Source: Escherichia phage vB_EcoM_G2469. From it: 64,000 bases of DNA. The notes below the pieces were generated by a model. That model was not told the DNA's origin. It did not search any database and was given only the letters and a program-made list of their open reading frames with translations. The first letter of the stretch is position 1. Every line of letters begins with the position of its first letter. Where the stretch lies: the sequence record MK327934.1. One strand, written 5' to 3'. The translations under genes and the position numbers were made by a program. Below, in pieces: positions 262-60,905 of the stretch.

Positions 262-564
262 TTATTTACCTTTAATTACTTTAGCTGCTTCGATAGCCGC
301 TTGCTGAAGGTCATCCATAGACATACCGAATTTAGAAGCAAAGTTATCAATTTTCTTTTCGACAGCATTCAAAGGCTTGGCCTGTTTACCTTCATTAGCG
401 CCAGGAAGAGCGAGAATACGCTCTTTGTCAATATAAAGGCTTACAAGTTTCTTACGGTCTTTATCGGACAAATCATGAAATGAATGGGCCTTTTTATTTA
501 TAGCGGCTTCTAATTTACCTGCACTCACTCGCGCTTCAGTAATAAATTCTTGATATGTTTTCAT
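262..564 (-). CDS. CTS-bearing internal (capsid-packaged) protein, IPII-like by size and position
   Basis: 100 aa ORF; N-terminus MKTYQEFITEA matches the T4 capsid targeting sequence MKTYQEFIAE; lies beside denV and e. Confidence 0.7.
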   Translation of the reverse strand: MKTYQEFITEARVSAGKLEAAINKKAHSFHDLSDKDRKKLVSLYIDKERILALPGANEGKQAKPLNAVEKKIDNFASKFGMSMDDLQQAAIEAAKVIKGK

Positions 565-605
565 ATGTTTCCTTTAAATGTAAATAGGTCCGAGTATTAG
601 CTTTA

Positions 606-1184
606 TTAGGAATTACGGGCTGCATTAGCAACGGCGTAAGCGTACTGAACATTAGCGTCTTTAAACGTGCCCTTAGTTGTATCTAGTTCTACCTTAAAAC
701 CGCCTTTAGCCATAACATCGGCAAATTCTTTACGGAAAGCCATTGCATCAAGACCTTTCCATGATGATTTATGCTTGGCAAATTCAAGACCTGCGAAGTT
801 GACAGCTTTAGCTAATTTATTATCAATGACCCATTTACCTGCTTTAGGCACAAACTTCGGACCTTTTTGTTTAGAGAACAGTTTTAAATTCCAGCGACGA
901 AGGTCACTGTCGGCTTTAACAAAAGCTGCGTCTAAGTTACTAGCAACAACATCTTCAATATGAGCAAATTTAAGTCCGTCAACTTCAATATTTAGATCAT
1001 TACGCCAGCGTAGTCCTTCCCAAGCGAAGGCTTTAAAGTCGGAAGCCTTTGTAGCTAAGTACCGTTCAATAGGAGCTGTTTTAGGGTCAAAGCCGTTTCC
1101 GCCACGATAATTCCACTCGTCCTTATTAATGCCTTGAGCTTTTCCTGCAAAGGCTTCGGCGATAAATTCTTTATATGTTTTCAT
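606..1184 (-). CDS. CTS-bearing internal protein, IPIII-like by size
   Basis: 192 aa ORF; N-terminus MKTYKEFIAEA (CTS); sigma70-type promoter TTTAC-N18-TATAAT upstream at 1215..1244. Confidence 0.7.
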   Translation of the reverse strand: MKTYKEFIAEAFAGKAQGINKDEWNYRGGNGFDPKTAPIERYLATKASDFKAFAWEGLRWRNDLNIEVDGLKFAHIEDVVASNLDAAFVKADSDLRRWNLKLFSKQKGPKFVPKAGKWVIDNKLAKAVNFAGLEFAKHKSSWKGLDAMAFRKEFADVMAKGGFKVELDTTKGTFKDANVQYAYAVANAARNS

Positions 1185-1214
1185 TTTTGTTTCCTTGTTT
1201 GTTTTGATAGAGTA

Positions 1215-1244
1215 ATTATACCATATTAATACTTAAGCGTAAAC
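1215..1244 (-). promoter_or_regulatory. sigma70-type early promoter
   Basis: GTTTAC-N18-TATAAT on minus strand upstream of 606..1184. Confidence 0.5.
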
Positions 1245-1247
1245 AAT

Positions 1248-1508
1248 TTAAGCTTTACCGCCAGAAATAATTCCGAAGTTGTTAAAATCGTATCCAATAT
1301 CGTCAACATCTACTTTAGGACTTACTACAACATAAGCAATTTCACTACGTTTTGCATAGGTGTTGATTTCTTTACCATCGCCACCTAAGAAAGAATACCC
1401 ATTACGTTTTAATGAGCCAAAGTCTTCGGCATCACCAATGAAAGCTTTAACTTTAAATTTAGGACCTTTGGCATCTGCTTCAGCGATAAATTCTTGATAC
1501 ATTTTCAT
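1248..1508 (-). CDS. CTS-bearing small internal protein (novel member)
   Basis: 86 aa ORF; N-terminus MKMYQEFIAEA; immediately downstream of denV on the same strand. Confidence 0.6.
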   Translation of the reverse strand: MKMYQEFIAEADAKGPKFKVKAFIGDAEDFGSLKRNGYSFLGGDGKEINTYAKRSEIAYVVVSPKVDVDDIGYDFNNFGIISGGKA

Positions 1509-1514
1509 TTTTCC

Positions 1515-1928
1515 TTAGTAAATTGATTTACCATAGTATTTGTACCAAGTCGGACGTTGAGCAATTTTTTCATCTAAGCGTGCTTGACTTATCGCAATGG
1601 ACGCTTCAGACGGGACGTAATTATTACGAAATTCTATAGGAATGTCGGAAATATCCTGGACAGTCGTGTCCTTGATTTTGAAACCACGTTTCAAACATTC
1701 GGCTATTAGCTCGATTTGACGTAAACGTAAAAATTCGAGTTTGTCGTAAAAGAATGTTACGTGACCTGTGCCTAAGATAAATGTTGGAGAGATTTTAAAA
1801 TCCTTTACACGTTTACCGTTTTGAACATGTTTACGGACTGCACCAAATACGCGTGGTAATTCACGATACTCAGCCATAAGATGTTGGTCGGTCAGTTCAG
1901 AAACAAGTGTTAAATTGATACGGGTCAT
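1515..1928 (-). CDS. denV: endonuclease V (pyrimidine-dimer DNA glycosylase/AP lyase)
   Basis: [12 protein letters not shown]...[10 protein letters not shown] matches T4 DenV along its length; ATG taken at 1928 (track ORF starts 4 codons earlier). Confidence 0.93.
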
Positions 1929-1964
1929 AATTTCCTCCAAGTAGTTGATGAATGTATAGTATCA

Positions 1965-1994
1965 AAGTCCTTGGAGGAAGTAAACACTATTTTT
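1965..1994 (-). promoter_or_regulatory. sigma70-type early promoter for denV
   Basis: GTTTAC-N18-TACTAT on minus strand, flanked by a 10-bp inverted repeat TTCCTCCAAG/CTTGGAGGAA. Confidence 0.45.
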
Positions 1995-2268
1995 CTGAAG
2001 CGCCTGAAATATATTTTTCAAGACGCTGTTTCATCAACGAGCCGTTCTTAGCGATTTCTTCCGGTTTATCGCACATACGCAACAATGCTTCAAGCTTAAC
2101 GATATCACTGGTGCGCTCAAATTTGCGAGTATCTATCTTACTAGCAAGTTCAGAAATACGTGCTAATAGACTTTCGGCTTCAACCAAAGCTGCACCTAGC
2201 TTAGTTGCAAATGTGTCAGTAGCTTCGTTAAGAATAGATTCTGATAAAAATTCACTATATGTTTTCAT
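1987..2268 (-). CDS. CTS-bearing small internal protein (novel member)
   Basis: Internal ATG gives [11 protein letters not shown] (CTS-like); start overlaps the e stop codon as ATGA (translational coupling). Confidence 0.55.
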
Positions 2269-2753
2269 ATATACGCTTTCCAAGTTCCTGTTTTAAATGT
2301 TGAGATTACGCGTTTCGCGCGATTAGGTGTCTGACGATACCATTTAGATTGGGCTAGATTTACTGCCGCTTCGTCCCAACGTTTCTGTTGAAGCATACGA
2401 AGAGAATTAGTAAAACCGGCGACGCCTGCTACACCCATTTGGAAGACCATATTGACCAATGCACAACGACGAACCGCATCTAAAGAATCATATACCGGTT
2501 TAAGTTTAGCATTACCCAAGATTCCGCGAACGGCTTTATCAACGTCTTCATTAAATAGCTTTTCAGCCTCATCAAGGGTAATTGTACCGTTGCATTTACG
2601 ACCGATCATTCTGTCAAGTTCAGCTTTAGCTACGGCTAAAGACGGGTTCTTTGTTACCAAATGGCCTATGCCAATCGTCCAAAAGCCTTCAGTGTCTTTG
2701 TATAAAGTCAGTCTAAGACCTTCGTCATTACGAAGCATTTCAAATATATTCAT
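2265..2753 (-). CDS. e: endolysin (T4 lysozyme)
   Basis: [32 protein letters not shown]... near-identical to T4 lysozyme; GGAGG SD before the ATG at 2753. Confidence 0.97.
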
Positions 2754-2787
2754 AATACCTCCCACGTTTATAGGAGGTATTTATTAC

Positions 2788-3246
2788 TTATAGGAGGGTA
2801 GTGAGCACCTTATATAATGATTTGCCCATTACATATTCCCATTGAGAAGGTTTAATTAAAGCGAATGCATCAAATTCAGGAATCTGTCGTCCGTCTGGGA
2901 ATGTATGATAGGAATTACAAACACTGTTTCTGAATTGCTCGTGCTCTACAGGGATGGTATATTGGAACAGATGAATATTCTTATTGTCTGAGTAATGATG
3001 TTCACCTAGGTCTTTCAGGAAGGCAGGGTCATATTGTGTAAACCCAGTTTCTTCTTCGCATTCACGAATAGCGGCTTCAATAGGAGATTCGCCAGGTTCG
3101 ACACGGCCTTTAGGAATATCCCACCGATGAGCTAAAGAACCTTTAGGACGAGAACCAGTTACACGGCCCATGAATAATTCTTTATCTTCGGTAAGGAAAA
3201 TAATACCAGCTGATAGTTCTTTCACTTTATTTTTCTTACTCATCAT
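2788..3246 (-). CDS. nudE: Nudix hydrolase
   Basis: Nudix box GRVEPGESPIEAAIRECEEETGF; position directly downstream of e as in T4 (e.1). Confidence 0.85.
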   Translation of the reverse strand: MMSKKNKVKELSAGIIFLTEDKELFMGRVTGSRPKGSLAHRWDIPKGRVEPGESPIEAAIRECEEETGFTQYDPAFLKDLGEHHYSDNKNIHLFQYTIPVEHEQFRNSVCNSYHTFPDGRQIPEFDAFALIKPSQWEYVMGKSLYKVLTTLL

Positions 3247-3472
3247 CTCGGTCCCATGATTTGGCCATTAATTCGGACATAAATTCTTCAATGCGCGTTT
3301 CTTTAGATGGACTTTCACTATTAGAGACCGCAAGTTTGTAATCTGCAATAGGACAGAACATATCAAGGTCCATATTAAGATCGTCTTTGATTTTTTCTTC
3401 TGACACATCTTTATCGTATGTGTACAGATAACTATCACATGATTCTGATTTAATGTAAATTGCTATACTCAT
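3236..3472 (-). CDS. small acidic hypothetical protein
   Basis: ORF in track (3236..3487); the ATG at 3472 has an AGGAA SD and overlaps the upstream stop as ATGA, so 3472 is preferred. Confidence 0.5.
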   Translation of the reverse strand: MSIAIYIKSESCDSYLYTYDKDVSEEKIKDDLNMDLDMFCPIADYKLAVSNSESPSKETRIEEFMSELMAKSWDRDDE

Positions 3473-3867
3473 CTCAAATTCCTGCATTCGGTAATAAAAC
3501 GTTCAACTTCATTATTCTTGGCCTTTATCTTGTCTTTACGTTCCTGTAAACTACTTTTAACAAGATTAATAATGATGCCTACAGTACCTCCACCAATAAT
3601 ACCACCAATAATACTTACGATAGTAGATGCTAATAAGATAGCGATAATATCTAGTATAGCAAAGGCACTTACTTTAGTACTAAAAAACCACACTGACGGT
3701 ACAAATATAATCCATCCTGTTATCCATTGGCACTTATTGAAAAACTTTTCAAGCTCAGCTTGAGTTGTTCGTATTACTTCATCGATAGGTTGATATCCAT
3801 TAATGTATCTGTTCACGATAATACCTGCTGGCTGGTTGATTTTAAATTCTTGGCAAATATGTTTCAC
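3469..3867 (-). CDS. hypothetical membrane protein
   Basis: 132 aa; hydrophobic segments (WIIFVPSVWFF, AILDIIAILLASTIVSIIGGIIGGG). Confidence 0.6.
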   Translation of the reverse strand: MKHICQEFKINQPAGIIVNRYINGYQPIDEVIRTTQAELEKFFNKCQWITGWIIFVPSVWFFSTKVSAFAILDIIAILLASTIVSIIGGIIGGGTVGIIINLVKSSLQERKDKIKAKNNEVERFITECRNLR

Positions 3868-3948
3868 TAAGTAGGATGGACATCCTGTCCAATCTACTGA
3901 ATAATACGAAATACCTTCGTTGATTAGACCAATATGTTTTGTTAATCA

Positions 3949-4635
3949 TTACCAGCCTTCCATAGGGAATTCCAGATAAACTTGAGCGTTGACACGAATT
4001 TCATTGGTAATCTTTTTAACTCGGTCTGTATTACGAGATACACGTCCGAACCAACGCCATCCGTTACTAATTGCACGAGAACCAGTGTGCCATGTTTGCC
4101 AATCAAACTGAAGAAGAGTACGGTCTGGAGCTTCCCATTTCTCTAGTTCACCTTTTTCAATTTTTTCGAGGACTTCTTTGTGCCACTGACGATAGATAAG
4201 TTCGCCATCAGGAATCTGACTGAACTCTGCAGTTCCTGTTGCAAAATGAGTAGGACACACATCAGCGTTAACAAGACCAAGAATATGTTCAGACAAATAG
4301 CGAGGATTGTCATAATCTGGTTGTCCTGCTGTAATAAAGTGTTGACCGACTGGAATATCAGGGCGTGGTATGTCGTCATGGTGATATCCAGGAATAGCAG
4401 GATACCAACCAGGCATCAGCATGTGGACTCGTGAATCAAATACTACATCAGAGTCTTTCCAATCGTCAGGAAGATTTTGGATAAAGCTACGAGTAATTGG
4501 GCCGCCATTATCAAAAGCAAAATTCAAATCGCAGTTAAAGAACATAGGCTCGTTTTTAATCTGGTTGTTTTTAATCGCATGAGCAAAACCACCTACTGCA
4601 CGAGCTTGACTATTAAACACTTTAGAACTATTCAT
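3949..4635 (-). CDS. hypothetical protein (228 aa)
   Basis: Long ORF with GAGGAAAA SD upstream of the ATG at 4635. Confidence 0.65.
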   Translation of the reverse strand: MNSSKVFNSQARAVGGFAHAIKNNQIKNEPMFFNCDLNFAFDNGGPITRSFIQNLPDDWKDSDVVFDSRVHMLMPGWYPAIPGYHHDDIPRPDIPVGQHFITAGQPDYDNPRYLSEHILGLVNADVCPTHFATGTAEFSQIPDGELIYRQWHKEVLEKIEKGELEKWEAPDRTLLQFDWQTWHTGSRAISNGWRWFGRVSRNTDRVKKITNEIRVNAQVYLEFPMEGW

Positions 4636-4636
4636 A

Positions 4637-4942
4637 TTATTTTCCTCGACATTCTTTAATGAAATTTTCTAGATTGGTAGATTCAATAGCTTTTTTACGA
4701 GCTTCTGCGTGTTCTTCTTCTGACAATTTACATTTATAATTGACCCAGACATTATGGTCGAAACTAGTCGTGGCATATAATAACAAAGCTCCGACGAATA
4801 ATAAAAACGGTGATAAGAATACAAAACCAGGAACACCATCCATACTGTAAGCCTTTTGTAATACTGCAACAGAAAGAGTTGCGTAAAAAAGTGATGCAAA
4901 TATTGTTAAAAGACCAATTCGGTTGGTTTCGCCTAATTTCAT
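4637..4942 (-). CDS. hypothetical membrane protein
   Basis: 101 aa, two hydrophobic helices; GGAG SD; leader plus ATG identical over 24 bp to that of the 9377..9682 gene. Confidence 0.6.
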   Translation of the reverse strand: MKLGETNRIGLLTIFASLFYATLSVAVLQKAYSMDGVPGFVFLSPFLLFVGALLLYATTSFDHNVWVNYKCKLSEEEHAEARKKAIESTNLENFIKECRGK

Positions 4943-4962
4943 AATATTCTCCTCATGTTTTG
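4939..4962. repeat. 24-bp exact repeat, copy 1 (leader, SD and ATG)
   Basis: TCATAATATTCTCCTCATGTTTTG identical to 9679..9702. Confidence 0.85.
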
Positions 4963-4970
4963 GTAGGACT

Positions 4971-4999
4971 ACTATAACATAGTCCTATAATTGTGTAAA
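4971..4999 (-). promoter_or_regulatory. sigma70-type early promoter (cassette)
   Basis: TTTACA-N17-TATAGT with TGn extended -10; lies in the repeated TAGGACTACTATAACATAGTCCTA motif. Confidence 0.5.
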
Positions 5000-5012
5000 C
5001 AGTTTTGCGAAA

Positions 5013-5969
5013 TTATTTGAAAGGTTTTACCATATGGAAATTTTGTTTGAAACGTTTGACGTAATCGTCATGTCCTAAGCTTTGGTACATACTTACTACT
5101 TTGCTGTAGTTTTCCCAGGCGTATTCACGGAACCAACCGGAGGTGATGCTTGTGCAGACTTTTTCTAATGCCATCATGAAACTGGCTTCAGGGTTAATTT
5201 TAAAGTCATTAGGAATCTGAGAACGTTCTAATGCTAGTACACATGATTCTTCATATACACCGGCCAATTTGACCATTTCTGGTAACGATTCGAACTTCTC
5301 GCGTGAGGTCATGACTTCAGAACCGTCTTTCATATAAAATGTATAAGCCGGACGGTCTGTTAGTGCAATGGCTTCATGAATAGTATCATGGTCATATGTA
5401 TAGATGTCATCTTTAAAGAACGCACTTTTAGAAGTGTCAAGAACCGGGTGAGCATAGTTCAAGGTTTCTTTCTGGCGTTTCAGCATAATTTCAGTAAGTT
5501 CATCGTTCAGTGTAACACCTTTACCACGAAGATACTGAATATGGTTCATAGTCTTTAAAAAGAATGGATTATTTTTCTTGAAACGATGAGACATCTTAAT
5601 TGCAAGGCACATCTCAGGAGTTGCCCAGTAAAACCCGTTCAAACGGTCTTTAGTCAAATTTTTCTTGGCGTATTTTAAAAGGTCATAAGAAGACGTGAAA
5701 TCTTCAGGAGTGAGTTCACCAACTAATTCACGGACATTAGTGATTGCCGGAACAATATATGCTTCAAAATGAGTTTCGCGTCCATTATGGAAGCATTTGA
5801 AAACTTGGACATCAGGGTTATCTTGGTGAACATATACACCCATCATTTGATTTTTGAATGCATTCCAAGAACATTGGTCCGCAATAAAGTCCCAATCACT
5901 ATTTTTGATAGCGCTAGAATCAATAAGACCGTGATAGTGAAGTGCACGAGAACCAATAACCAACATCAT
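5013..5969 (-). CDS. hypothetical protein with possible nucleotidyltransferase-like GS...DxD motif
   Basis: 318 aa; N-terminal VIGSRALHYHGLIDSSAIKNSDWDFIAD; GAGGAAAA SD; function is inferred only. Confidence 0.65.
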   Translation of the reverse strand: MMLVIGSRALHYHGLIDSSAIKNSDWDFIADQCSWNAFKNQMMGVYVHQDNPDVQVFKCFHNGRETHFEAYIVPAITNVRELVGELTPEDFTSSYDLLKYAKKNLTKDRLNGFYWATPEMCLAIKMSHRFKKNNPFFLKTMNHIQYLRGKGVTLNDELTEIMLKRQKETLNYAHPVLDTSKSAFFKDDIYTYDHDTIHEAIALTDRPAYTFYMKDGSEVMTSREKFESLPEMVKLAGVYEESCVLALERSQIPNDFKINPEASFMMALEKVCTSITSGWFREYAWENYSKVVSMYQSLGHDDYVKRFKQNFHMVKPFK

Positions 5970-5997
5970 AATATTTTCCTCGGATTAATTCATTAAC

Positions 5998-6249
5998 TTA
6001 AATTTCACGACATGCGATATTATATTCATCCCAGAGGTCATCATGTGAAGCCTCTACCAAAGGAACGATTGTACCGTTTATGTCTTCATTATAAGGGCAA
6101 ATTGTACAGTGCGCATCTTCGAATCGGATGCCTTTGTGTTCAGATTTTTTATAACGCATATCGAATATCTTTGCAAACTTTTCACGAGTAATGGTTTTAC
6201 CAACCACTTTGGTTCCGATACTTTCGTAATAAATCATTGTGGACTCCAT
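5998..6249 (-). CDS. small hypothetical protein, Cys/His-containing
   Basis: 83 aa; early promoter at 6266..6294. Confidence 0.55.
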   Translation of the reverse strand: MESTMIYYESIGTKVVGKTITREKFAKIFDMRYKKSEHKGIRFEDAHCTICPYNEDINGTIVPLVEASHDDLWDEYNIACREI

Positions 6250-6265
6250 TTGTTTTGATAGGACT

Positions 6266-6294
6266 ACTATAACATAGCCCTATCTTGTTGTAAA
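6266..6294 (-). promoter_or_regulatory. sigma70-type early promoter (cassette)
   Basis: TTTACA-N17-TATAGT, same repeated motif. Confidence 0.5.
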
Positions 6295-6299
6295 CTGTT

Positions 6300-6497
6300 T
6301 TAGCAAGAATAACTAGATGATACCCAGCCTTGAACAGTGATACTATTGTGGGATAATGAGATCGCGTCCTGGAGATTCAGACCTGCGTTATCTTCAATCC
6401 ATAATGTAACTTCTTCGCGTTCTTCTGTTGCAATTTGGAACAGGTTTTCCAGGGCAGCTACTGCCGTACGTACAGCACAATCTAATTCACGAGACAT
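6300..6497 (-). CDS. small hypothetical protein, C-terminal WVSSSYSC tail (paralog 1 of 3)
   Basis: 65 aa; AAGGAA SD; conserved C-terminal tail shared with the next two ORFs. Confidence 0.55.
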   Translation of the reverse strand: MSRELDCAVRTAVAALENLFQIATEEREEVTLWIEDNAGLNLQDAISLSHNSITVQGWVSSSYSC

Positions 6498-6506
6498 ATG
6501 ATTTCC

Positions 6507-6779
6507 TTAACAAGTGTGAGAAGATGCAACCCAACCGCCATCTTCAAGGCTCAGGTTGTAGTCGTATTGGTAAACGTCGGCCCATTCAGCATAGCCGTTT
6601 TTTGTACAACGTTCAAGATCGGCTTTAAGATGTCCGGGTGAATGATAGGTTCCACCCATACCATAAGCTGGGTACAAGTCGAATGTTGTGTTTTGTTTAT
6701 CAGCAATTTCTTTGGCAGCCTCAATAGCTGCATAGATTTTTGCTACAGCTTCAGCCAGTTCGGTTTGTTCTTTAGACAT
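6507..6779 (-). CDS. small hypothetical protein, C-terminal WVASSHTC tail (paralog 2 of 3)
   Basis: 90 aa; AAGGAA SD. Confidence 0.6.
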   Translation of the reverse strand: MSKEQTELAEAVAKIYAAIEAAKEIADKQNTTFDLYPAYGMGGTYHSPGHLKADLERCTKNGYAEWADVYQYDYNLSLEDGGWVASSHTC

Positions 6780-6788
6780 AATGATTCC

Positions 6789-7094
6789 TTAGCACAACGC
6801 TGAAGACGAAACCCAAGCACCTTCAGTAATAACGTAACCATTACCTTCACGCTTAACATCGCCACCATTATTTTCAATTTCATTTTTCATCCACTGGGAT
6901 ACGATTTCACCCTTAGGATAATAAGTACGACCGCTACCATAATCACCTACAGAAAATGATACGGCATATTGGTCTGCGATCTTTGTTGCTTCTTCTTCAA
7001 TACGTTCAGCTTGATTCAGAAGTTTATAAATTGCATCTGAAGCGGATTTGGCATCATTAAACTCTGGTACTTTAATTTCAATAATCTTACTCAT
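6789..7094 (-). CDS. small hypothetical protein, C-terminal WVSSSALC tail (paralog 3 of 3)
   Basis: 101 aa; AAGGAA SD; promoter GTTTAC-N17-TATAAT at 7155..7183. Confidence 0.6.
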   Translation of the reverse strand: MSKIIEIKVPEFNDAKSASDAIYKLLNQAERIEEEATKIADQYAVSFSVGDYGSGRTYYPKGEIVSQWMKNEIENNGGDVKREGNGYVITEGAWVSSSALC

Positions 7095-7154
7095 TTTCTA
7101 CATTCCTTAATAAAGTTTTCTATTGTTTCATTTTCACGTCTAGCTAGGAGTTCA

Positions 7155-7183
7155 TTATAACTAATCATTTGAGAAGCGTAAAC
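7155..7183 (-). promoter_or_regulatory. sigma70-type early promoter
   Basis: GTTTAC-N17-TATAAT on minus strand. Confidence 0.5.
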
Positions 7184-7192
7184 AGCATAAAT

Positions 7193-7585
7193 TCAGTTCA
7201 GGCTTTTGCATCTTATTTCCTTAACGAATTCCATAGCTTCTTCATATTCATACTTTTTAACAGCTTCATCATACTGAGCTTTGGCTTTCGCGCACTGAAC
7301 TTTCCATTCACGAACTCGAGCTCTGTGATGACGGCCTTGGTACCAATATCCCACCAAGTTAATAGGCATTAATAAAAATGGCACAATAAACGACCCGGCT
7401 ATAATAAGTAAAAACACTGCATCAGACGATATAACTTCACTAGAATCTAAAACAGCTCCTATAATCATAAAGATTAAAAATGCTAAAGCTAAAATAGGGC
7501 CAAATAGTACTTCATTTGGGATTAATTTACGCTTGTATTCGTATGCCCAGGGCTTAATTGGCATGTACAGGGTTGGCTTTGACAT
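7193..7585 (-). CDS. hypothetical membrane protein
   Basis: Two hydrophobic helices; track start at 7615 is a TTG; in-frame ATGs at 7585 and 7564, so the start is uncertain. Confidence 0.5.
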   Translation of the reverse strand: MSKPTLYMPIKPWAYEYKRKLIPNEVLFGPILALAFLIFMIIGAVLDSSEVISSDAVFLLIIAGSFIVPFLLMPINLVGYWYQGRHHRARVREWKVQCAKAKAQYDEAVKKYEYEEAMEFVKEIRCKSLN

Positions 7586-8156
7586 ATTCTCTACATTCCA
7601 TAATAAATTGCTCAAGGATTAAATTGTTAGTGAAATTAGGACTAACAACCATAGTTTCATAAAGCGCATCAATAGCACTTAAAGCATCAACTCTTTTAAG
7701 CAAAGGCTTGCCTTCATACATAGTTTCAGAATCGATGATTAACGTAAAGTAATATTTTTTATTATCGACTAGAACTTCCGTATCGATATAAAACATATTA
7801 GACCTCAGAAGCTTATCTCTAAAACCATAATAATCTTCAGAGCGTTCGCTGATATATTCCCATTCAGTGTTTAAACAACAAACAGACCATGTAGGAGCAA
7901 CGAAATCAGTGAATCTAATATCATGGTCTGCAACTAGTTTAGCAATAGCTCCGATATCATGAATCATAATACCTGGGGCTAATAAAGATTTTCTGCTATG
8001 GCTAGCCGTTTTCTCAGTAGTCTCATAAGAAGACGACCAGTACCATTTACGTCCAGTTGCAACATATCGTAATGAATCAACTAAAGACGTAGGTGGATTT
8101 ACCTTATTTCGGAACTCTTCGAACATTGAGTCAATATCATTATTTTGGTTTCGCAT
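7554..8156 (-). CDS. hypothetical protein (about 200 aa)
   Basis: Track start at 8177 is TTG; the ATG at 8156 is preceded by AAAGGAG SD. Confidence 0.6.
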   Translation of the reverse strand: MRNQNNDIDSMFEEFRNKVNPPTSLVDSLRYVATGRKWYWSSSYETTEKTASHSRKSLLAPGIMIHDIGAIAKLVADHDIRFTDFVAPTWSVCCLNTEWEYISERSEDYYGFRDKLLRSNMFYIDTEVLVDNKKYYFTLIIDSETMYEGKPLLKRVDALSAIDALYETMVVSPNFTNNLILEQFIMECREYVKANPVHAN

Positions 8157-8180
8157 GTTAACTCCTTTATTATCCAAAAG

Positions 8181-8198
8181 GAGGACCGGAGTCCTCCG
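8181..8198 (-). terminator. stem-loop / terminator
   Basis: GGAGGACUCCGGUCCUCC followed by UUUUGG on minus strand, then SD and ATG of the next gene. Confidence 0.5.
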
Positions 8199-8205
8199 TA
8201 TTATT

Positions 8206-8799
8206 TTATTTCAAAGAGTTAATATATTCTTGTACATCAGCAGAAGTGGTTTCGACGCCAGCTGGAGTGCCATTGAACGTTTCAACACGAGTCAGAGTGT
8301 CTTCGATATCAACCTTAGTCAGTGCAGCGATTTCAATTACATCATCAGCCGTAGAGATACCAAGGGCATTGGCTGCTCGAGTTTCACGAATGTATTCGAG
8401 TTTGATTGCCAGATTCTGACGAGCATCATCAAGTTCAACCACCTTACGAGCAATTTCAATTCGCATAGCGGCGTACCCGTCAGCTTTTGTATTAAGTTGT
8501 TCGGCAGTTCGACGATACAGAAGACCAAGCTTAGCATGCATAGTAACATCTTGTCCTTCGGCCAGGAGCTTACGAATTTCACGTTCCTTAGAAGCGGCTT
8601 GCTTGTTCTTTTCATTAACAAGTTCGCGAATACGTTTTTCTTCATTAATAGATTTAACAGAAGCCGTTTTTAGTTCTTTGATTTGGGTAATCAACTTATC
8701 TGCAGCTGCGTTATACTGTTCTTCGACAGTCAGATTTTTAGCCATAGCAGTACCCAGTTTAGTGCGGATGAATTCAACAAGTTTCTTCAGTGTGTTCAT
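8206..8799 (-). CDS. coiled-coil protein, possibly PspA/IM30-like
   Basis: 197 aa, heptad-rich and K/E-rich; ATG at 8799 (track start 8814 is TTG); family assignment is a guess. Confidence 0.55.
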
Positions 8800-8869
8800 A
8801 TTATTACCTTTCAATTGGTGGTTTATTATCCAACGAGAGCATTATACTCTGCTCTCAAGAGTTTGTAAA

Positions 8870-9097
8870 TTATTTTTTAATCAAATTGACATAAAACTTG
8901 GCGTCTTCGGGGTGCATGCCTTCGCAGTATTCTTCAACCATGAACTTCTTAATAGCTTCATAAGGACCACTCAGATTAAGCTCAGTTGTCCAGAACTTGG
9001 AATCTTGGGCTGAATCGATACGAACTTCAGGGTGACGGTTGCGAATAACTTCTTCGGTGTATTCATAATCAACGACATCAATACTAACTGTAGCCAT
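8870..9097 (-). CDS. small hypothetical protein
   Basis: 75 aa ORF with early promoter at 9126..9154. Confidence 0.5.
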   Translation of the reverse strand: MATVSIDVVDYEYTEEVIRNRHPEVRIDSAQDSKFWTTELNLSGPYEAIKKFMVEEYCEGMHPEDAKFYVNLIKK

Positions 9098-9125
9098 TTT
9101 GTTTTCCTCTTGATTTGATAGGACT

Positions 9126-9154
9126 ACTATAACATAAACTTACTTAGATGTAAA
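9126..9154 (-). promoter_or_regulatory. sigma70-type early promoter (cassette)
   Basis: TTTACA-N17-TATAGT. Confidence 0.45.
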
Positions 9155-9308
9155 TTATTTCAACGTCACCTTTAGCTGCTTTATAACCTTCAGCCCAAGA
9201 TACAACAGAGTTTTTATCTGAGGATTCAAATTCAGGCATTGGACTTTCACCAATATTCACACAGTATGTTTCTTCATTTTCATCGAACCAAATAATTAAA
9301 GTAGTCAT
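9144..9308 (-). CDS. small hypothetical protein (54 aa), absent from the ORF track
   Basis: MTTLIIWFDENEETYCVNIGESPMPEFESSDKNSVVSWAEGYKAAKGDVEIIYI; its start and promoter region lie in a 47-bp exact repeat shared with the gene at 45236..45505. Confidence 0.45.
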   Translation of the reverse strand: MTTLIIWFDENEETYCVNIGESPMPEFESSDKNSVVSWAEGYKAAKGDVEIIYI

Positions 9309-9348
9309 TTTGTTTACTCCTCTGTAGTTGATAAGTCTATAGTATCAC
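9302..9348. repeat. 47-bp exact direct repeat, copy 1 (promoter -10, leader and ATG module)
   Basis: Identical to 45499..45545 by manual alignment. Confidence 0.85.
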
Positions 9349-9376
9349 CATCCTTGGTGCTTGTACATCATTATTT

Positions 9377-9682
9377 TTAATTTTTCCAACTTAACAACTT
9401 GTAGTGTCCTTCATTCATACGTGGTTTATCCCAAGAAATACTAATATATGATTCGCTGTCAATAGAAGTCGCCGGGTTTTTCTCTACCGTAAGACCTTCA
9501 CTTTCCAGCCATTCAATAGTATTTGCGCATAAATCAGAAGAACACCTAATCGGAAACCGGCAAGATTTTTCACCTTTAGCTGCAGTGTTATACATCTTTT
9601 CTAAAATACGCTTTTGCACGTTTTTAAAAATAGTTTCAGCAGATTCTTCAGATTTTTTATTCAGTTCAGTGTAAAGACTCAT
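9377..9682 (-). CDS. small hypothetical protein
   Basis: 101 aa; GGAG SD; early promoter at 9711..9739. Confidence 0.55.
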   Translation of the reverse strand: MSLYTELNKKSEESAETIFKNVQKRILEKMYNTAAKGEKSCRFPIRCSSDLCANTIEWLESEGLTVEKNPATSIDSESYISISWDKPRMNEGHYKLLSWKN

Positions 9683-9702
9683 AATATTCTCCTCATGTTT
9701 TG
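9679..9702. repeat. 24-bp exact repeat, copy 2
   Basis: Identical to 4939..4962. Confidence 0.85.
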
Positions 9703-9710
9703 ATAGGTCT

Positions 9711-9739
9711 ATAGTAACACATCTAGGGAAGAAGTAAAC
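9711..9739 (-). promoter_or_regulatory. sigma70-type early promoter
   Basis: GTTTAC-N17-TACTAT. Confidence 0.45.
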
Positions 9740-9767
9740 AACTTTTTCAGTAAGTTATAGACCCCCT

Positions 9768-9783
9768 AAAGGGGACCGAAGTC
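9768..9783 (-). terminator. stem-loop of a stem-loop/promoter cassette
   Basis: GGGGACUUCGGUCCCC followed by UUUAGGG; sits between a gene end and the next early promoter. Confidence 0.4.
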
Positions 9784-9791
9784 CCCATTCT

Positions 9792-10418
9792 TTACTTACG
9801 AGTTTTTGCATACTGAGCAGCGTCAGCAGCCAAACGACCTGCCTGACGAAGTTTTTCTTTAATCGCATCGTGAAGTGGTTGAGTGTACTTCAAACCTTCG
9901 ATAGTCAAATAAAGACGATAAAGGTCCGGGGTATCAAGGTTGTTGATATGTTGGCCATTACGAAGAATATTGAATTCACGAACGAGTGAAGATGTATCGG
10001 ATTCAATATCACGAACAAGCGAAGATAGTTGTTTATATTTTTTTTCCAGACTAGAAGTATCAAACTTAAGAGCAGGAGCTTTAGGAGTTGCTTTTACTTC
10101 AGGCTTAGGCTCAGGTTTTGCTATTGCTTTAGGGGTCGCAGGTTTAGGAATGGAAGGAGTAGGTTTTACTTTAGGCGAACCCGATTTAGCAGAAACACCA
10201 CCACTAACAATATCTTTGAATGCTTTAGAAGCTCTGTAATATTCTTTTTGGCTGGAAGTGTCGATACCGTACATGGCTTGAACGTTTTTGAAAAACTCTG
10301 TACTAGTTTTTGTACCAGAAATAGCATCGTAAGCAGCTTGCCATTTCTCTTTTGTCATACGTACACCGGCTTCGGTGATTACTTCCGTTTCGGCTAAAAA
10401 TTCATTAAAAGTATACAT
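9792..10418 (-). CDS. CTS-bearing internal protein with Pro/Lys-rich linker (novel member)
   Basis: 208 aa; N-terminus MYTFNEFLAETE (CTS-like); PKVKPTPSIPKPATPKAIAKPEPKPEVKATPKAP linker; TATAAATA late-promoter motif 36 nt upstream. Confidence 0.65.
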   Translation of the reverse strand: MYTFNEFLAETEVITEAGVRMTKEKWQAAYDAISGTKTSTEFFKNVQAMYGIDTSSQKEYYRASKAFKDIVSGGVSAKSGSPKVKPTPSIPKPATPKAIAKPEPKPEVKATPKAPALKFDTSSLEKKYKQLSSLVRDIESDTSSLVREFNILRNGQHINNLDTPDLYRLYLTIEGLKYTQPLHDAIKEKLRQAGRLAADAAQYAKTRK

Positions 10419-10453
10419 CGATGGTCCTTAGAAAGTAGGTTTATTGTTTACTA

Positions 10454-10461
10454 TATTTATA
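10454..10461 (-). promoter_or_regulatory. T4-type late promoter (TATAAATA)
   Basis: Exact TATAAATA on minus strand, 36 nt before the ATG at 10418. Confidence 0.6.
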
Positions 10462-10465
10462 CAAA

Positions 10466-10488
10466 AAAGCCCCAACCTTTCGGAAGGG
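10466..10488 (-). terminator. rho-independent terminator
   Basis: Minus-strand RNA AGCCCCUUCCGAAAGGUUGGGGCU followed by UUUUUU. Confidence 0.75.
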
Positions 10489-10495
10489 GCTATAT

Positions 10496-10793
10496 ACCTT
10501 GTCGGGGTTCCACCTGCTAAGGCAAGTGTTTGTACGAAACGCCGGGATTCGAACCCGGTTATTAAGTAGTTGACGCTACTCAATATTTTTAAAAGGCCAT
10601 ATCTCGACCATATCCGAACGTTCCGTCAAAAACGCTACTCGGCTTACGGCAAAGATATTTCCTCGAATCGATAATTCGGTGCGCCGTTTCTGCTGTGATA
10701 TAAGGGGGCATTAACAAAACATAAAGATTTATTAATGCCAGTCCTTACTCAGGGAACATCAGTCCGACGACTTACCGGTAGCGACCCGGCTTC
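10496..10793 (-). other. non-coding region with tRNA-like 3' half (possible stable RNA or tRNA remnant)
   Basis: Perfect T arm CCGGG-UUCGAAU-CCCGG plus acceptor 3' strand at 10535..10558, but no canonical D or anticodon arms fold; 8-bp palindrome GGCATTAA...TTAATGCC at 10708..10740. Confidence 0.35.
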
Positions 10794-11138
10794 TTATTTT
10801 GGCATATCATCAATTTGCTCTCGACGCCGACGCCATAGATTAATCGCTTCATAAACACATTCTGCGTTTGGTATATGACGGCAATAATATAATGATTCGC
10901 GTTTCTGGAATCGATGTTGCAATGGGATTTCGTTTAAAAGGTCTTTACGGTCAAAGTATTCAAAACTAGTTAACCTGGAACGGTTTTTAATGAACTTCCA
11001 ATGACCAAATTCATTTTGAACATAGATGTAATCTGCATGTTGGTATAACAAATTAATCAATCGGTCTGAAATAACTGTATCATGTTCGTTAAAATAAAAC
11101 GTTAAATCATGAACTACTAAGTAAACATTACCTTTCAT
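10794..11138 (-). CDS. hypothetical protein (114 aa)
   Basis: ATG at 11138 with GAGGAAAA SD; the longer track ORF would overlap the tRNA. Confidence 0.55.
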   Translation of the reverse strand: MKGNVYLVVHDLTFYFNEHDTVISDRLINLLYQHADYIYVQNEFGHWKFIKNRSRLTSFEYFDRKDLLNEIPLQHRFQKRESLYYCRHIPNAECVYEAINLWRRRREQIDDMPK

Positions 11139-11156
11139 ATTTTCCTCACTTAAAAT

Positions 11157-11233
<77 letters not shown>

Positions 11234-11333
11234 ATGATGCGGCTTTGGGTGTTTCAGTGTTACTCGTTTGTAGGTTCTACTTTTAACCCTTATTCGAACA
11301 ACTTACCTACCTAAGAGCGTACTCACCGCGAAT

Positions 11334-11408
11334 TGGTGGCCCTGGCTGGTTTCGATCCAGCTACCTATCAGTTATGAGCTGACAGCTCTCCCATTGAGCT
11401 ACAGGGCC
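11334..11408 (-). tRNA. tRNA with CAU anticodon (Met, or Ile if C34 is lysidine-modified)
   Basis: Acceptor GGCCCUG/CAGGGCC perfect, D arm GCUC-AAUGGGA-GAGC, anticodon loop CUCAUAA, T stem GCUGG/CCAGC with unusual loop AUCGAAA, encoded CCA. Confidence 0.7.
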
Positions 11409-11470
11409 TAAATAACTTTCTATTATGAAAGGCACTTGAGGGAGCACCTTTGGTAATAGAGGGTAGATTA

Positions 11471-11495
11471 ATAATAACACATAATTCTTAAAGCA
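11471..11495 (-). promoter_or_regulatory. candidate MotA-dependent middle promoter upstream of the tRNA genes
   Basis: Minus strand reads TTTGCTTTA, 12-nt spacer, TATTAT; about 55 nt upstream of the tRNA-CAU 5' end. Confidence 0.3.
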
Positions 11496-11504
11496 AATTA
11501 CGTT

Positions 11505-11795
11505 TTACCGTACCATATTAATGTAGTTATATTCAATGCAACGTAATTTCAAAGGGTTCTTGAAAATATCATATTCAAGAGGGCCTTTTTCTGTTTCAAT
11601 AAAGAAATCAAAGTTAACTGTGTTAAATTTAACGTCTTCACAGAGTAATTTAACTTGTGAAGATGAACGGTCGATATAAACCTTTTCAACCTCAAAGATA
11701 GTCAGAATACCGTAGTCATTAACCAGTGCTTTAGCTGCACGTTGGTCGCTTTCATATCCGTTCTCAATGGACGATACTTTAGCATAAAGAATCAT
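11505..11795 (-). CDS. small hypothetical protein
   Basis: 96 aa ORF in the early region. Confidence 0.5.
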   Translation of the reverse strand: MILYAKVSSIENGYESDQRAAKALVNDYGILTIFEVEKVYIDRSSSQVKLLCEDVKFNTVNFDFFIETEKGPLEYDIFKNPLKLRCIEYNYINMVR

Positions 11796-12154
11796 GAATG
11801 TTCCACCATTTCAAAGGTATGAGCATCAACAATATGATACCAGTCAAAATTTTCTTCCGCGTTTTTATAAATTTCGCGAAGAGCTTCAACAGTTTTTCCT
11901 GTAGCAACAAGATCGTCAATACCACCAAGAGGATAACAGTAATAACCAGCAAACAGAAGGAAATTAATAGTTTCTGTAGGTTCTGGATGCAGAACACCGT
12001 TATCATCTACCACTTCAAAGAAAGTGTAAGAAGGAGTACAAGTTTTAATCCAAACCCATGCTTGGGCTGCTGAATCAAATGGTCTGCGTATCAAACGACA
12101 ATCAGGGTCTTTAGAAGGATTTGCGTCAAAATCTGCATATACATGATATTTCAT
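11792..12154 (-). CDS. hypothetical protein
   Basis: 120 aa ORF, 4-nt overlap with the downstream gene. Confidence 0.55.
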   Translation of the reverse strand: MKYHVYADFDANPSKDPDCRLIRRPFDSAAQAWVWIKTCTPSYTFFEVVDDNGVLHPEPTETINFLLFAGYYCYPLGGIDDLVATGKTVEALREIYKNAEENFDWYHIVDAHTFEMVEHS

Positions 12155-12361
12155 TTACTCACCTTTTGCAATTTTATCCATAACGATAGCGATTAAGCCG
12201 ATTAGAAATGCTACTACCAATGAGATAGAATTTTCTGTTGTTGTCAGTAGTCCACAAATGAATCCTACAAACATCGAAAAACTAAAAGCCATTGAAGCAA
12301 TTACTACAGCAACATTACGAATCAGTTCAGCGCGTTTCATTTTATTTCTCCATTTACTCAT
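12155..12361 (-). CDS. small hypothetical membrane protein
   Basis: 68 aa, hydrophobic (AVVIASMAFSFSMFVGFICGLL, LVVAFLIGLIAIV); early promoter cassette upstream. Confidence 0.5.
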   Translation of the reverse strand: MSKWRNKMKRAELIRNVAVVIASMAFSFSMFVGFICGLLTTTENSISLVVAFLIGLIAIVMDKIAKGE

Positions 12362-12409
12362 TTGTTTTGATAGGACTACTATAACATATCCCTATAGGCT
12401 TGTATACCT

Positions 12410-12673
12410 TTATTTCAAATATATTGCGTATTTTTTATAGCCACCAGGCTCGTGTCGAAGACCTTTATCATTCGCAAAACGTTGAATGTTATTGAACTGA
12501 TTTTCATCAAGTTCGGATGTGTCAAATACGAAAAAGTTTCGTTTGTTACCAAGCGTGATATGCGGAGTTAAGTCAATGTTATACAAATTAAGAATATCAG
12601 CAATAACCTGATTGACCGCTTTGTTAATTTTCACACCAGATGATTCTGAGATGAATTCGTTGAAAGTTTTCAT
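12410..12673 (-). CDS. CTS-bearing small internal protein (novel member)
   Basis: Internal ATG gives MKTFNEFISES; early promoter TTTACA-N17-TATAGT at 12706..12734. Confidence 0.55.
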   Translation of the reverse strand: MKTFNEFISESSGVKINKAVNQVIADILNLYNIDLTPHITLGNKRNFFVFDTSELDENQFNNIQRFANDKGLRHEPGGYKKYAIYLK

Positions 12674-12690
12674 TTTAGGTTCCATTTGGT

Positions 12691-12723
12691 TGTTTTGATA
12701 GGACTACTATAACATAGTCCTAT
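12691..12723. repeat. recurrent about 33-bp promoter motif TGTTTTGATAGGACTACTATAACATAGTCCTAT
   Basis: Near-identical copies at 4956..4988, 6251..6283, 12363..12395 and a partial at 9113..9136; internal 8-bp inverted repeat ATAGGACT/AGTCCTAT. Confidence 0.8.
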
Positions 12724-12734
12724 CGTGTTGTAAA
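12706..12734 (-). promoter_or_regulatory. sigma70-type early promoter (cassette)
   Basis: TTTACA-N17-TATAGT upstream of CTS ORF 12410..12673. Confidence 0.5.
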
Positions 12735-13046
12735 TTATTTTATGCCTTTAGAAGAAATGGTATTTTGGCGTTTAACCCCTGTTTGTGAAAAATCGTGGTT
12801 ATCGATTTGGTCGACTCGCATAACACCAAATGCAGATTTAATTTTAGCCTTTGAACCTTTTTTGATACTAATTATCATATAAGTATCATTTTTCTTATAT
12901 TCGAAATTTGTTACTTCAACGCCTTGATTAGAAATTGACTTAATAATAGCATTAGCGTATTCATCATCTAACGGACCGGTGGTGTTAATAATAAAATTTT
13001 TATCGGCTTTAGTAGCTTCAGCGATAAACTCTTGATAAGTTTTCAT
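12735..13046 (-). CDS. CTS-bearing small internal protein (ipI-position member)
   Basis: 103 aa; N-terminus MKTYQEFIAEA is an exact CTS; next to the 57B-like gene; promoter at 13084..13112. Confidence 0.65.
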   Translation of the reverse strand: MKTYQEFIAEATKADKNFIINTTGPLDDEYANAIIKSISNQGVEVTNFEYKKNDTYMIISIKKGSKAKIKSAFGVMRVDQIDNHDFSQTGVKRQNTISSKGIK

Positions 13047-13083
13047 TTGTTTTTTCCGTTTGGTTTGTGATTTGATATGATGA

Positions 13084-13112
13084 TAGTATCACACCATCAT
13101 CCTTATGTAAAC
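13084..13112 (-). promoter_or_regulatory. sigma70-type early promoter
   Basis: GTTTAC-N17-TACTAT upstream of CTS ORF 12735..13046. Confidence 0.5.
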
Positions 13113-13125
13113 TGTTTTGTGAAAA

Positions 13126-13811
<686 letters not shown>

Positions 13812-39883: not shown

Positions 39884-41455
39884 ATGAAATTTAATATCTT
39901 AAGTTTGTTTGCTCCATGGGCAAAAATGGACGAACGTGATTACAAAGACCAAGAAAAAGAAAATTTAGAATCTATCACCACACCAAAATTAGACGATGGT
40001 GCTAAAGAATACGAAGTATCTGAAAATGAAGCACAGCAAACATATAATGCTATGTTTCAGAGAATGTTTGGTAGTCAAGAACCAGGGCTCAAATCAACCC
40101 GTGAACTAATCGATACGTATCGAAATTTGATGACGAACTATGAAGTGGATAATGCAGTCTCTGAAATAGTTTCCGATGCTATCGTATATGAAGATGATAC
40201 AGAAGTCGTTTCTATAAATTTAGACAACACAAAATTTAGTCCAAATATAAAATCAATGATGTTGGATGAATTTAACGAAGTGTTGAATCATTTATCTTTC
40301 CAACGTAAAGGTTCAGACCATTTTAGGCGTTGGTATGTGGATTCTCGAATTTTCTTCCATAAAATTATTGACCCTAAACGCCCTAAAGAAGGTATTAAAG
40401 AGCTTCGTCGTTTAGACCCACGTCAAGTTCAATATGTCCGTGAAGTTATTACAACCACTGAAGCCGGTGTTAAAATAGTCAAGGGTTATAAAGAATATTT
40501 CATTTATGACACATCACACGAATCTTATGCTTGTGATGGTCGCATATATGAAGCGGGCACAAAAATAAAAATCCCTAAAGCCGCGATTGTTTACGCCCAT
40601 TCTGGTTTAGTTGATTGTTGTGGTAAAAATATCATTGGTTATTTGCATCGGGCTATTAAGCCAGCGAACCAATTAAAACTTCTTGAAGATGCCGTCGTAA
40701 TTTATCGTATTACTCGTGCTCCCGATCGTCGTGTATGGTACGTTGATACAGGTAATATGCCTTCAAGAAAAGCAGCAGAACATATGCAACATGTTATGAA
40801 TACGATGAAAAACCGTATTGCATATGATGCTACTACAGGCAAGATTAAAAACCAACAGCATATTATGTCGATGACCGAAGATTATTGGTTACAACGACGT
40901 GATGGTAAAGCAGTAACAGAAGTTGATACATTACCAGGTGCAGATAATACCGGAAATATGGAAGATGTACGTTGGTTCCGTAATGCGCTTTATATGGCTT
41001 TACGTATTCCTATTACCCGTATTCCAAGTGACCAAGGTGGTATACAGTTTGATGCTGGTACTTCTATTACACGAGATGAATTATCATTTGGTAAATTTAT
41101 TCGTGAGCTGCAACATAAATTTGAAGAGATATTCCTAGACCCGCTTAAAACTAATTTAATTCTTAAAGGAATTATTACAGAAGATGAGTGGAATGATGAA
41201 ATAAATAATATTAAGATAAAATTTCATCGGGATAGTTATTTCTCGGAATTAAAGGATGCTGAGATTCTGGAGCGTCGCATTAATATGCTTCAGATGGCCG
41301 AACCATTTATTGGTAAATATATTTCTCACAGAACAGCTATGAAAGATATTCTTCAGATGTCTGACGAGGAAATTGAACAAGAGGCTAAGCAAATTGAAGA
41401 AGAGTCGAAAGAGGCTCGTTTCCAAGACCCCGACCAAGAACAAGAGGATTTTTAA
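39884..41455 (+). CDS. 20: portal vertex protein gp20
   Basis: 523 aa; late promoter at 39848..39855. Confidence 0.96.
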
Positions 41456-41685
41456 TGGACGATTTAATTCAAGCTATTAAATCAAACGACCTCGTTGCTA
41501 CTCGAAAGTTTTTTGAAAGTGCAATGGCAGAAAAAACGGTTCGTTTGATTGAAGCACGCAAAGCAGAAATCGCTTCTCAATTTTTAATTGAAGGCGAAGA
41601 ACCTGAAGAAGAAAAGAAAGCTTCGGAAGACGACGCTGATGAAGGCGATGACGACGAAGACGAAGATGATGAGGACGATGAATAA
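41455..41685 (+). CDS. 67: prohead core protein gp67
   Basis: 76 aa with poly-acidic C-terminus. Confidence 0.9.
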
Positions 41686-42751: not shown

Positions 42752-42784
42752 ATAATAATGTAATCTAAACCACAGGACACTAAA

Positions 42785-60875: not shown

Positions 60876-60905
60876 ATAGTATCACACATCCATGTGTTTG
60901 TAAAC
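60876..60905 (-). promoter_or_regulatory. sigma70-type early promoter
   Basis: GTTTAC-N18-TACTAT inside the 3' end of alt. Confidence 0.4.

Follow-up and report, generated by a model that had tools for sequence, protein, structure and literature searches.

The 64,000-nt stretch of Escherichia phage vB_EcoM_G2469 DNA analysed here (MK327934.1, hereafter the window) encodes, on its minus strand, seven open reading frames (ORFs) whose products share an N-terminal leader resembling the capsid-targeting sequence (CTS) of the internal proteins (Ips) of phage T4, and all seven lie exactly where an earlier sequence-only reading of this DNA had placed them. The first 14 kb of the window match RB69/JS09-like Mosigvirus coliphages at 95–98% identity, FL31 and mogra best of all, and a T4-type structural module fills the remainder; by these matches the phage is an RB69-like, T4-type Mosigvirus. 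Six of the ORFs fall within two recognised Ip loci. Locus A (e-denV-vs.8) holds the genes for an ipV-like internal head protein (ORF4, 1987..2268), an RB69p125-type internal head protein (ORF3, 1248..1508), IpIII (ORF2, 606..1184) and IpII (ORF1, 262..564), and locus B (57B-tRNA.4) those for Ip7 (ORF7, 12735..13046) and Ip9 (ORF6, 12410..12673). Both are known hypervariable Ip loci. ORF5 (9792..10418) occupies a third position, here named locus C, which is not recognised as one.

The leader is the feature that unites the seven products. All of them carry Tyr or Phe at position 4, Phe at 7, Ile or Leu at 8 and Glu at 10. In the suppressor analysis of the IPIII leader by Mullaney & Black, as summarised in PMC9026906, the first two of these positions were mapped to targeting and the last two to processing. 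The same source reports that Glu10 is needed for cleavage, that the first 10 residues of the T4 leader are enough to package foreign proteins, that the prohead protease gp21 recognises L/I-x-E and that Ip propeptides are 10–19 residues long (PMC9026906). The gp21 sites predicted here at positions 8–10 read ITE, IAE (in three ORFs), LSE, LAE and ISE, with Ala, Ser or Thr at P1'. The six frames of the window contain 439 Met starts that run on for 60 codons or more; in this set the pattern M..[YFW]..F[IL].E was observed seven times against 0.019 expected from composition, and 0 times in 50 shuffles, and a chance N-terminal match was accordingly rejected. Hence the shared motif is the T4 CTS, as the four mapped positions and these statistics indicate and as the sequence-only reading had proposed. 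With regard to the leader, that reading needs amending in two details. The stricter consensus that it gave to all the ORFs, MK[TM][YF]xEF[IL]xE, holds for six of the seven, but ORF5 starts with MYTFNEFLAE, in which Tyr replaces Lys at position 2 while the register stays the same as in the other six. Likewise, MKTYQEFIAE does not serve as leader for every T4 Ip, since IPI starts with MKTFKEFTSTTTPVSTITE/A, a 19-residue propeptide (here and below a slash marks a gp21 cut, predicted in the case of the window proteins).

Six of the seven ORFs match PHROG families labelled as internal head or virion proteins and thus are members of families already filed as internal proteins. ORF1 (100 aa, MKTYQEFITE/A, mature pI 9.7) is 94% identical to T4 IpII, matches phrog_7857 'internal virion protein' (E 4.5e-55) and corresponds to a gene annotated ipII in mogra, and ORF2 (192 aa, MKTYKEFIAE/A, mature pI 9.6) is 91% identical to T4 IpIII and matches phrog_5341 (E 2.7e-117), so that the expectation of two IPII/IPIII-like proteins proved right at the level of orthology. 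In the remaining five, alignment with T4 Ips is confined to the leader. ORF3 (86 aa, MKMYQEFIAE/A, mature pI 6.4) is 96.5% identical to RB69p125, a RefSeq 'internal head protein', occurs in 217 phage records and matches phrog_2667 (E 4e-21). ORF4 (93 aa) matches phrog_3499 'internal head protein' (E 1e-46) and has relatives at about 48% identity that bear the label 'ipV: internal head protein' in Tequatrovirus, 496 records altogether; a Ser follows its predicted gp21 site directly, and four L/I-x-E motifs stand within residues 1–40. ORF6 (87 aa, MKTFNEFISE/S, mature pI 9.0) matches phrog_7673 'internal head protein' (E 5e-49) and its mogra counterpart is annotated 'Ip9 putative internal head protein', while ORF7 (103 aa, MKTYQEFIAE/A, mature pI 9.5) matches phrog_2667 (E 2e-38) and is entered publicly, for mogra and in several protein records, under the names 'Ip7 protein' or 'internal head protein 7'. 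The names Ip7, Ip9 and ipV are taken from GenBank annotations and from later papers that cite Repoila et al. 1994. Mature pI values lie between 9.0 and 9.7 for IpII, IpIII, ORF5, Ip9 and Ip7, and at 6.3–6.4 for ORF3 and ORF4. The proposal that the five proteins other than IpII and IpIII are novel effectors is therefore not sustained for four of them, which belong to families annotated as Ip7, Ip9, ipV-like and RB69p125 internal head protein.

The occurrence of many diverse CTS-tagged Ips in T-even phages goes back to Repoila et al. 1994, as that work is cited in PMC3012670 and PMC12373910. More recently, Silas et al. 2025 recognised 'at least 10' further Ips in related phages by their signal sequence, and showed that T4 Ip1, Ip2 and Ip3 are inhibitors of three different GmrSD enzymes (PMC12373910), which documents an anti-defence role of injected Ips for these three; none of the leader sequences described here is present as text in the supplements of that study. 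In the window, ORF1 (94%) and ORF2 (91%) alone are orthologous to Ips for which a GmrSD target has been demonstrated. In the region homologous to the one described here, the number of CTS-like ORFs is seven in RB69, seven in mogra and five or six in JS09, and T4 has the three that the sequence-only reading had credited it with. Seven is consequently the normal number for the genus and not an expanded set.

ORF5 is the one member of the seven that has escaped annotation. It encodes 208 aa with the leader MYTFNEFLAE/TEVITE/AG and a mature pI of 9.7, and matches phrog_2280, labelled 'unknown function'. Its family is present in 138 phage records from Mosig-, Dhaka-, Winkler-, Karam-, Kanagawa- and Marfavirus and from one Yersinia Tequatrovirus, and all annotated rows among the matches listed say 'hypothetical protein'; in the literature we found no paper mentioning RB69ORF149c, JS98 gp135 or phrog_2280. 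The leader is a family trait conserved across genera, since nearly all members shown conform to M-x-x-[FY]-x-[ED]-[FI]-[IL]-x-E, with one exception shifted by one residue, and the Dhakavirus members start with the canonical MKTYNEFLNE. A second predicted gp21 site, ITE/A at residues 14–16, is likewise conserved as (I/L/V)-(T/S)-E followed by Ala or Ser, and stands in the family a few residues past the first, just before the conserved ERMTKxKWQ body. The body itself contains a single internal L/I-x-E (IKE, 186–188), which is not conserved in the family alignment. In the AlphaFold2 (AF2) model (mean pLDDT 72) the protein is all-helical, with an N-domain at 23–72 and a three-helix C-domain at 122–206 joined by a disordered linker rich in Pro, Ala and Lys (74–112). 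An exhaustive profile search among 1.8 billion representatives returned only 13 clusters, several of them with swapped C-terminal domains. It seems reasonable to regard ORF5 as a new candidate internal protein, the only one of the seven that is unannotated everywhere. Its leader with the second site, and also the late promoter and the polymorphic locus described below, mark it as capsid-targeted and suggest that it is probably packaged and processed; that it also serves against host defences is a tentative proposal by analogy with the T4 proteins, to which we give somewhat less than even odds.

The surroundings of ORF5 set it apart from the other Ip genes. An exact match to the T4-type late promoter, TATAAATA, lies on the minus strand at 10454..10461, about 36 nt upstream of the ORF5 ATG, and (T)ATAAATA is found at the equivalent position in seven of seven ORF5 homologues, each from a different genus, while no late promoter occurs within 200 nt of the other six Ip ORFs. 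Another exact copy of TATAAATA lies within the IpII coding sequence (495–502, minus strand); it is probably a chance match, although it could serve downstream genes as a late promoter. Directly upstream of the ORF5 promoter, a terminator hairpin with a U-run (10463..10490, minus strand, −16.5 kcal/mol, z −3.1) marks the end of the rnaC/rnaD/tRNA unit and corresponds by homology to the hairpin that follows rnaC in T4. Just past the ORF5 stop there is a UUCG-loop hairpin (9771..9786, minus strand, −12 kcal/mol) which is no better than shuffles and thus constitutes weak evidence. The stretch at 10459–10799 (minus strand) is 91% identical to the T4 region of the small stable RNAs rnaC and rnaD with their terminator and has a tRNA-like T-arm (GGTTCGAATCC); it gave no Rfam family match and no ARAGORN call.

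What follows this terminator differs from phage to phage. In mogra, the segment corresponding to 9746..10495 of the window is replaced by a different ORF of 154 aa (mogra_134) starting with MKSYAEFLTE, and RB69 carries at this place ORF149c, starting with MKTYAEFLTE. In T4 locus C is empty: homology runs through rnaD/rnaC and the terminator and stops at the promoter, and past the rnaC terminator (T4 comparison positions 8624–8908) there is neither a late promoter nor an ORF, only the early promoter of e.8. Direct search of the ORF5 profile against mogra_134 yielded 8 bits only, and the link was made through intermediates, ORF5 retrieving P0033 at 1e-13, P0033 retrieving mogra_134 at 2e-24 and P0030 retrieving RB69ORF149c at 2e-12; so joined, the three Mosigvirus alleles of locus C are, on the evidence of these profiles, one divergent family. 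The mogra cassette has near-copies of the GGTTGGGGCTTTTT hairpin on either side, a hint of recombination at terminators. Adjoining locus C, the RB69ORF146c-like ORF at 9377..9682 (101 aa) corresponds to 167 aa in mogra, owing to some 220 bp of extra sequence, internal or C-terminal (window 9392–9422 against mogra comparison positions 9644–9862). We consider it an evenly balanced question whether locus C represents an unrecognised third hypervariable Ip locus of the Tevenvirinae, encoding a distinct class of packaged and injected proteins with a late promoter of their own, two-step processing as in IPI, and exchangeable N- and C-terminal helical domains on either side of a basic linker of Pro, Ala and Lys. 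Such a design would be far from that of the small single-domain Ips, and these proteins might therefore target a host function other than GmrSD.

At loci A and B, promoter prediction gave sigma-70 extended −10 promoters, all on the minus strand, for IpIII (1243..1215), Ip9 (12734..12706) and Ip7 (13111..13083), resembling the early-type ones before T4 ipI, ipII and ipIII, for which no late promoter was found within 200 nt. ORF3 begins 7 nt past the denV stop, and the ATG of ORF4 overlaps the stop (ATGA) of the lysozyme gene e (2265–2765), an arrangement that suggests translational coupling. Upstream of Ip9, an in-frame ATG (12674–12685) would give a product beginning MEPKMKTF…, with an MEPK extension that also figures in the RB69 ipI annotation; initiation at this ATG would move the CTS away from the N-terminus. 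Neither Ip9 start has a strong Shine-Dalgarno sequence.

Beyond the leader, the seven proteins have little in common. The claim that their bodies are unrelated agrees with pairwise BLAST of the mature sequences, which found no similarity except a marginal Ip9/Ip7 match, but in PHROGs ORF3 and Ip7 share a remote-homology family. The kinship of Ip7, Ip9 and ORF3 appears only weakly in hhalign (87% and 53% probability) and with a BLAST E value of 6e-4 in a tiny database, which suggests, not robustly, remote homology via a common beta-alpha-beta module. Searches of Pfam, NCBIfam and PDB sequences with all seven proteins returned no match above threshold, and the mature bodies matched nothing in PDB by sequence or profile; a TonB-linker match of ORF5 was discarded as spurious and a DUF7412 match of IpII as weak. 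The AF2 model of Ip7 (pLDDT 75) adopts a ferredoxin/ACT-like beta-alpha-beta-beta-alpha-beta fold. An IPI*-like fold was considered for it and abandoned, given that the matches listed by Foldseek were generic folds of the ferredoxin/ACT-like type, none better than E 2e-3, and did not include IPI*. With the ORF5 model, Foldseek against PDB and BFVD recovered ORF5's own uncharacterised family only.

The machinery on which a CTS would depend is encoded on the plus strand of the same window. As predicted, the gp21 prohead protease is found at 42110..42751 (Pfam Peptidase_S77, E 2.9e-107), within a block of prohead core and scaffold genes (41455..43597; PHROG 'prohead' or 'head scaffolding protein', E 1e-25 to 7e-92) in which PHROG matches identify gp67 (41455..41685), gp68 (41685..42110) and gp22 (42785..43597). 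The presence of the Alt ADP-ribosyltransferase was also correctly anticipated: its gene lies at 60905..62992 on the minus strand (phrog_802, E 1.4e-261) and is syntenic with the annotated mogra gene. Inh was found as well, and the synteny of this module was checked against mogra. In T4, Alt is packaged and injected.

Taken together, these data lead us to propose, with a probability of roughly 80%, that the seven ORFs constitute the Ip complement of a Mosigvirus, distributed over three loci, whose leader would load each protein into the head, where gp21 would trim it before injection with the DNA. The N-terminal CTS of about 10 residues would bind the assembling prohead core (gp22, gp67, gp68) and take each protein inside before the gp23 shell closes; gp21 would then cut after L/I-x-E at Glu10, the final cut in ORF5 likely falling after Glu16 (ITE/A), much as IPI of T4 is cut behind an ITE that ends at residue 19. 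Once matured, the proteins would remain in the head with the DNA, enter the host along with it and there neutralise defences acting on the incoming modified DNA, chiefly type IV enzymes of the GmrSD type, by analogy with T4 Ip1, Ip2 and Ip3. For IpII and IpIII, packaging, processing and injection may be assumed from orthology to experimentally studied T4 proteins, and for the five non-T4 proteins leader and family annotation point the same way, whereas an anti-defence activity of these five is put forward by analogy.

Several observations weigh against this proposal. The literature searched gave neither virion proteomics nor N-terminal sequencing for any of the five non-T4 proteins, and a search for virion proteomics on JS98, RB69, fHe-Yen9-01, Kosakonia phage 305 and relatives found none. 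Neither Pfam, NCBIfam, PDB nor Foldseek provided an informative fold or family match for any of their bodies. ORF3 and ORF4 are not basic, unlike the classical Ips, and with its four N-terminal L/I-x-E motifs ORF4 may be cut up like a core protein and not kept. ORF5 has no Lys2, lies outside both recognised Ip loci, between e.8-side genes and rnaC, and is preceded by a late promoter, in contrast to T4 ipI, ipII and ipIII, where all promoters within 200 nt are of the early type. As to function, ten ip genes assayed against five more GmrSD systems produced no new inhibitor pairs (PMC12373910), so that GmrSD inhibition should not be assumed for every Ip.

Part of this evidence could be accommodated if ORF5 and its locus-C relatives were accessory parts of the prohead core or scaffold, acting in head assembly or DNA condensation and not as injected effectors, which is the main alternative for ORF5. 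The leader would again bring them to the core and gp21 would cut them; their basic linker of Pro, Ala and Lys would then be a DNA-binding tether, or else the protein would leave the head as gp22, gp67 and gp68 do. A late promoter as in structural genes, unlike that of classical ip genes, all-helical and coiled-coil-like domains with a long disordered linker reminiscent of scaffold proteins, the basic pI and the two cleavage motifs of the leader would all fit. We nevertheless regard this as unlikely, because ORF5 is dispensable at the genus level, being absent from T4 and replaced in mogra and RB69 by alleles that differ greatly from it, a turnover that is not expected of essential assembly proteins. 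Moreover, the exchange of C-domains among family members is a pattern more typical of arms-race proteins, and a body devoid of conserved internal L/I-x-E would survive gp21 intact. It could also be argued that some of the seven, ORF3 and ORF4 in particular, are decaying or non-functional remnants of Ips. Several RB69 Ip genes do look degraded or mis-sequenced: the RB69 copy of ORF4 (RB69p127) has the scrambled leader MKTYMNFYQN, RB69p123 is without Glu10, and RB69ORF149c and 148c overlap and look like one locus-C gene split by a frameshift (RB69 comparison positions 13429–13991). In JS09, truncation has left 36 aa of ORF3, and the atypical pI of ORF3 and ORF4 would agree with decay. Yet both are full length in the window with their leaders intact, and conservation at 95–100% extends to about 125 phage records for ORF3 and about 230 for ORF4, which makes their being remnants quite unlikely.

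The shared N-terminus might, finally, be a mere by-product of cassette shuffling, the first 30 nt riding on a mobile module of promoter, leader and ribosome-binding site (RBS) in front of unrelated cytoplasmic early genes whose products are not packaged. The leader DNA of the seven ORFs indeed forms a family of direct repeats of 30–41 nt, repeated stem-loop elements with early promoters stand on both sides of several cassettes, and Ip9 and RB69 ipI have a common upstream leader that includes the in-frame MEPK. But leader identity reaches only 71–80%, and the differences include synonymous ones (ACA/ACT, ATT/ATC, GAA/GAG, TTT/TTC) while the four mapped residues are invariant, as would be produced by selection on the peptide and not by recent copying. 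The upstream regions also differ, comprising early promoters, coupling to e or denV and a late promoter, so that no single module is being moved; and as the first 10 residues suffice for packaging of foreign proteins in T4 (PMC9026906), any protein bearing them should be loaded. We therefore consider shuffling alone a very improbable explanation, and continue to favour an Ip complement encoded at three loci.

The stem-loop elements just mentioned belong to a repeat of about 65 nt, present in six copies (4952–5016, 6247–6311, 9107–9171, 12359–12423, 12687–12751 and 13064–13128), each consisting of an early-type promoter and a stem-loop with the core GATAGGACTACTATAACATAGTCCTATC and bracketing cassettes of small ORFs that include Ip7 and Ip9; we take them to resemble the promoter-stem-loop elements proposed to drive modular shuffling in T4-type phages. 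Elsewhere in the same region, three tandem paralogous ORFs on the minus strand (6300–6497, 6507–6779 and 6789–7094; 65, 90 and 101 aa) are the equivalents of RB69ORF136c, 137c and 139c and have a common C-terminal end, GWV(S/A)SSxxC.

Injected internal proteins are the first phage molecules that host immunity meets, and after fifty years we know of targets for three Ips only, T4 Ip1, Ip2 and Ip3. The cytosines of Mosigvirus DNA are arabinosylated, not glucosylated, and this DNA is still cut by GmrSD-family enzymes such as BrxU, a circumstance that makes Ip7, Ip9, the ipV-like and the RB69p125-type protein obvious candidates for new inhibitor-enzyme pairs. Most of what is described here is known biology, and the gain is modest but concrete: the assumption of five novel effectors is corrected, seven Ips are recognised as the norm of the genus, and attention is drawn to the ORF5 family, found in 138 phage genomes of at least eight genera, which at the sequence level shows all the hallmarks expected of a packaged protein, has so far not been annotated as one and lies outside the loci that people screen. 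If our suggestion for locus C is true, the Tevenvirinae would have a third Ip locus, occupied by ORF5 in this phage, by RB69ORF149c in RB69 and by mogra_134 in mogra, and empty in T4.

Compared with known systems, the seven genes depart from their T4 models to very different degrees. ORF1 and ORF2 are orthologues of T4 IPII and IPIII that keep the 10-residue CTS, the IxE/A site, the e/denV neighbourhood and early-type promoters, although the gene order is e, ipV-like, denV, RB69p125-type, ipIII, ipII here and e, ipIII, ipII, denV in T4. ORF3, ORF4, ORF6 and ORF7 correspond to the polymorphic Ip cassettes of T-even phages, among which Ip7, Ip9, Ip10 and ipV are counted, with the same loci, the CTS and unrelated bodies, and nothing substantive distinguishes them. 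ORF5 recalls T4 IPI (Ip1) in its two-part leader, MxxFxEF followed by a short spacer and ITE/A (MKTFKEFTSTTTPVSTITE/A in IPI), but the bodies are dissimilar, ORF5 is about 2.5 times larger, its two helical domains with a disordered linker contrast with the compact alpha/beta fold of T4 IPI*, and it lies at another locus under a late promoter, while IPI has an early-type one. With the T4 core proteins gp67, gp68 and gp22, late products that are drawn into the core and cleaved by gp21 at L/I-x-E, it shares the late promoter and the helical and disordered character. These proteins, however, are conserved and needed for head shape, undergo many internal cuts and are largely expelled, whereas the cleavage motifs of ORF5 are confined to its leader and the gene is variable or absent among close relatives.

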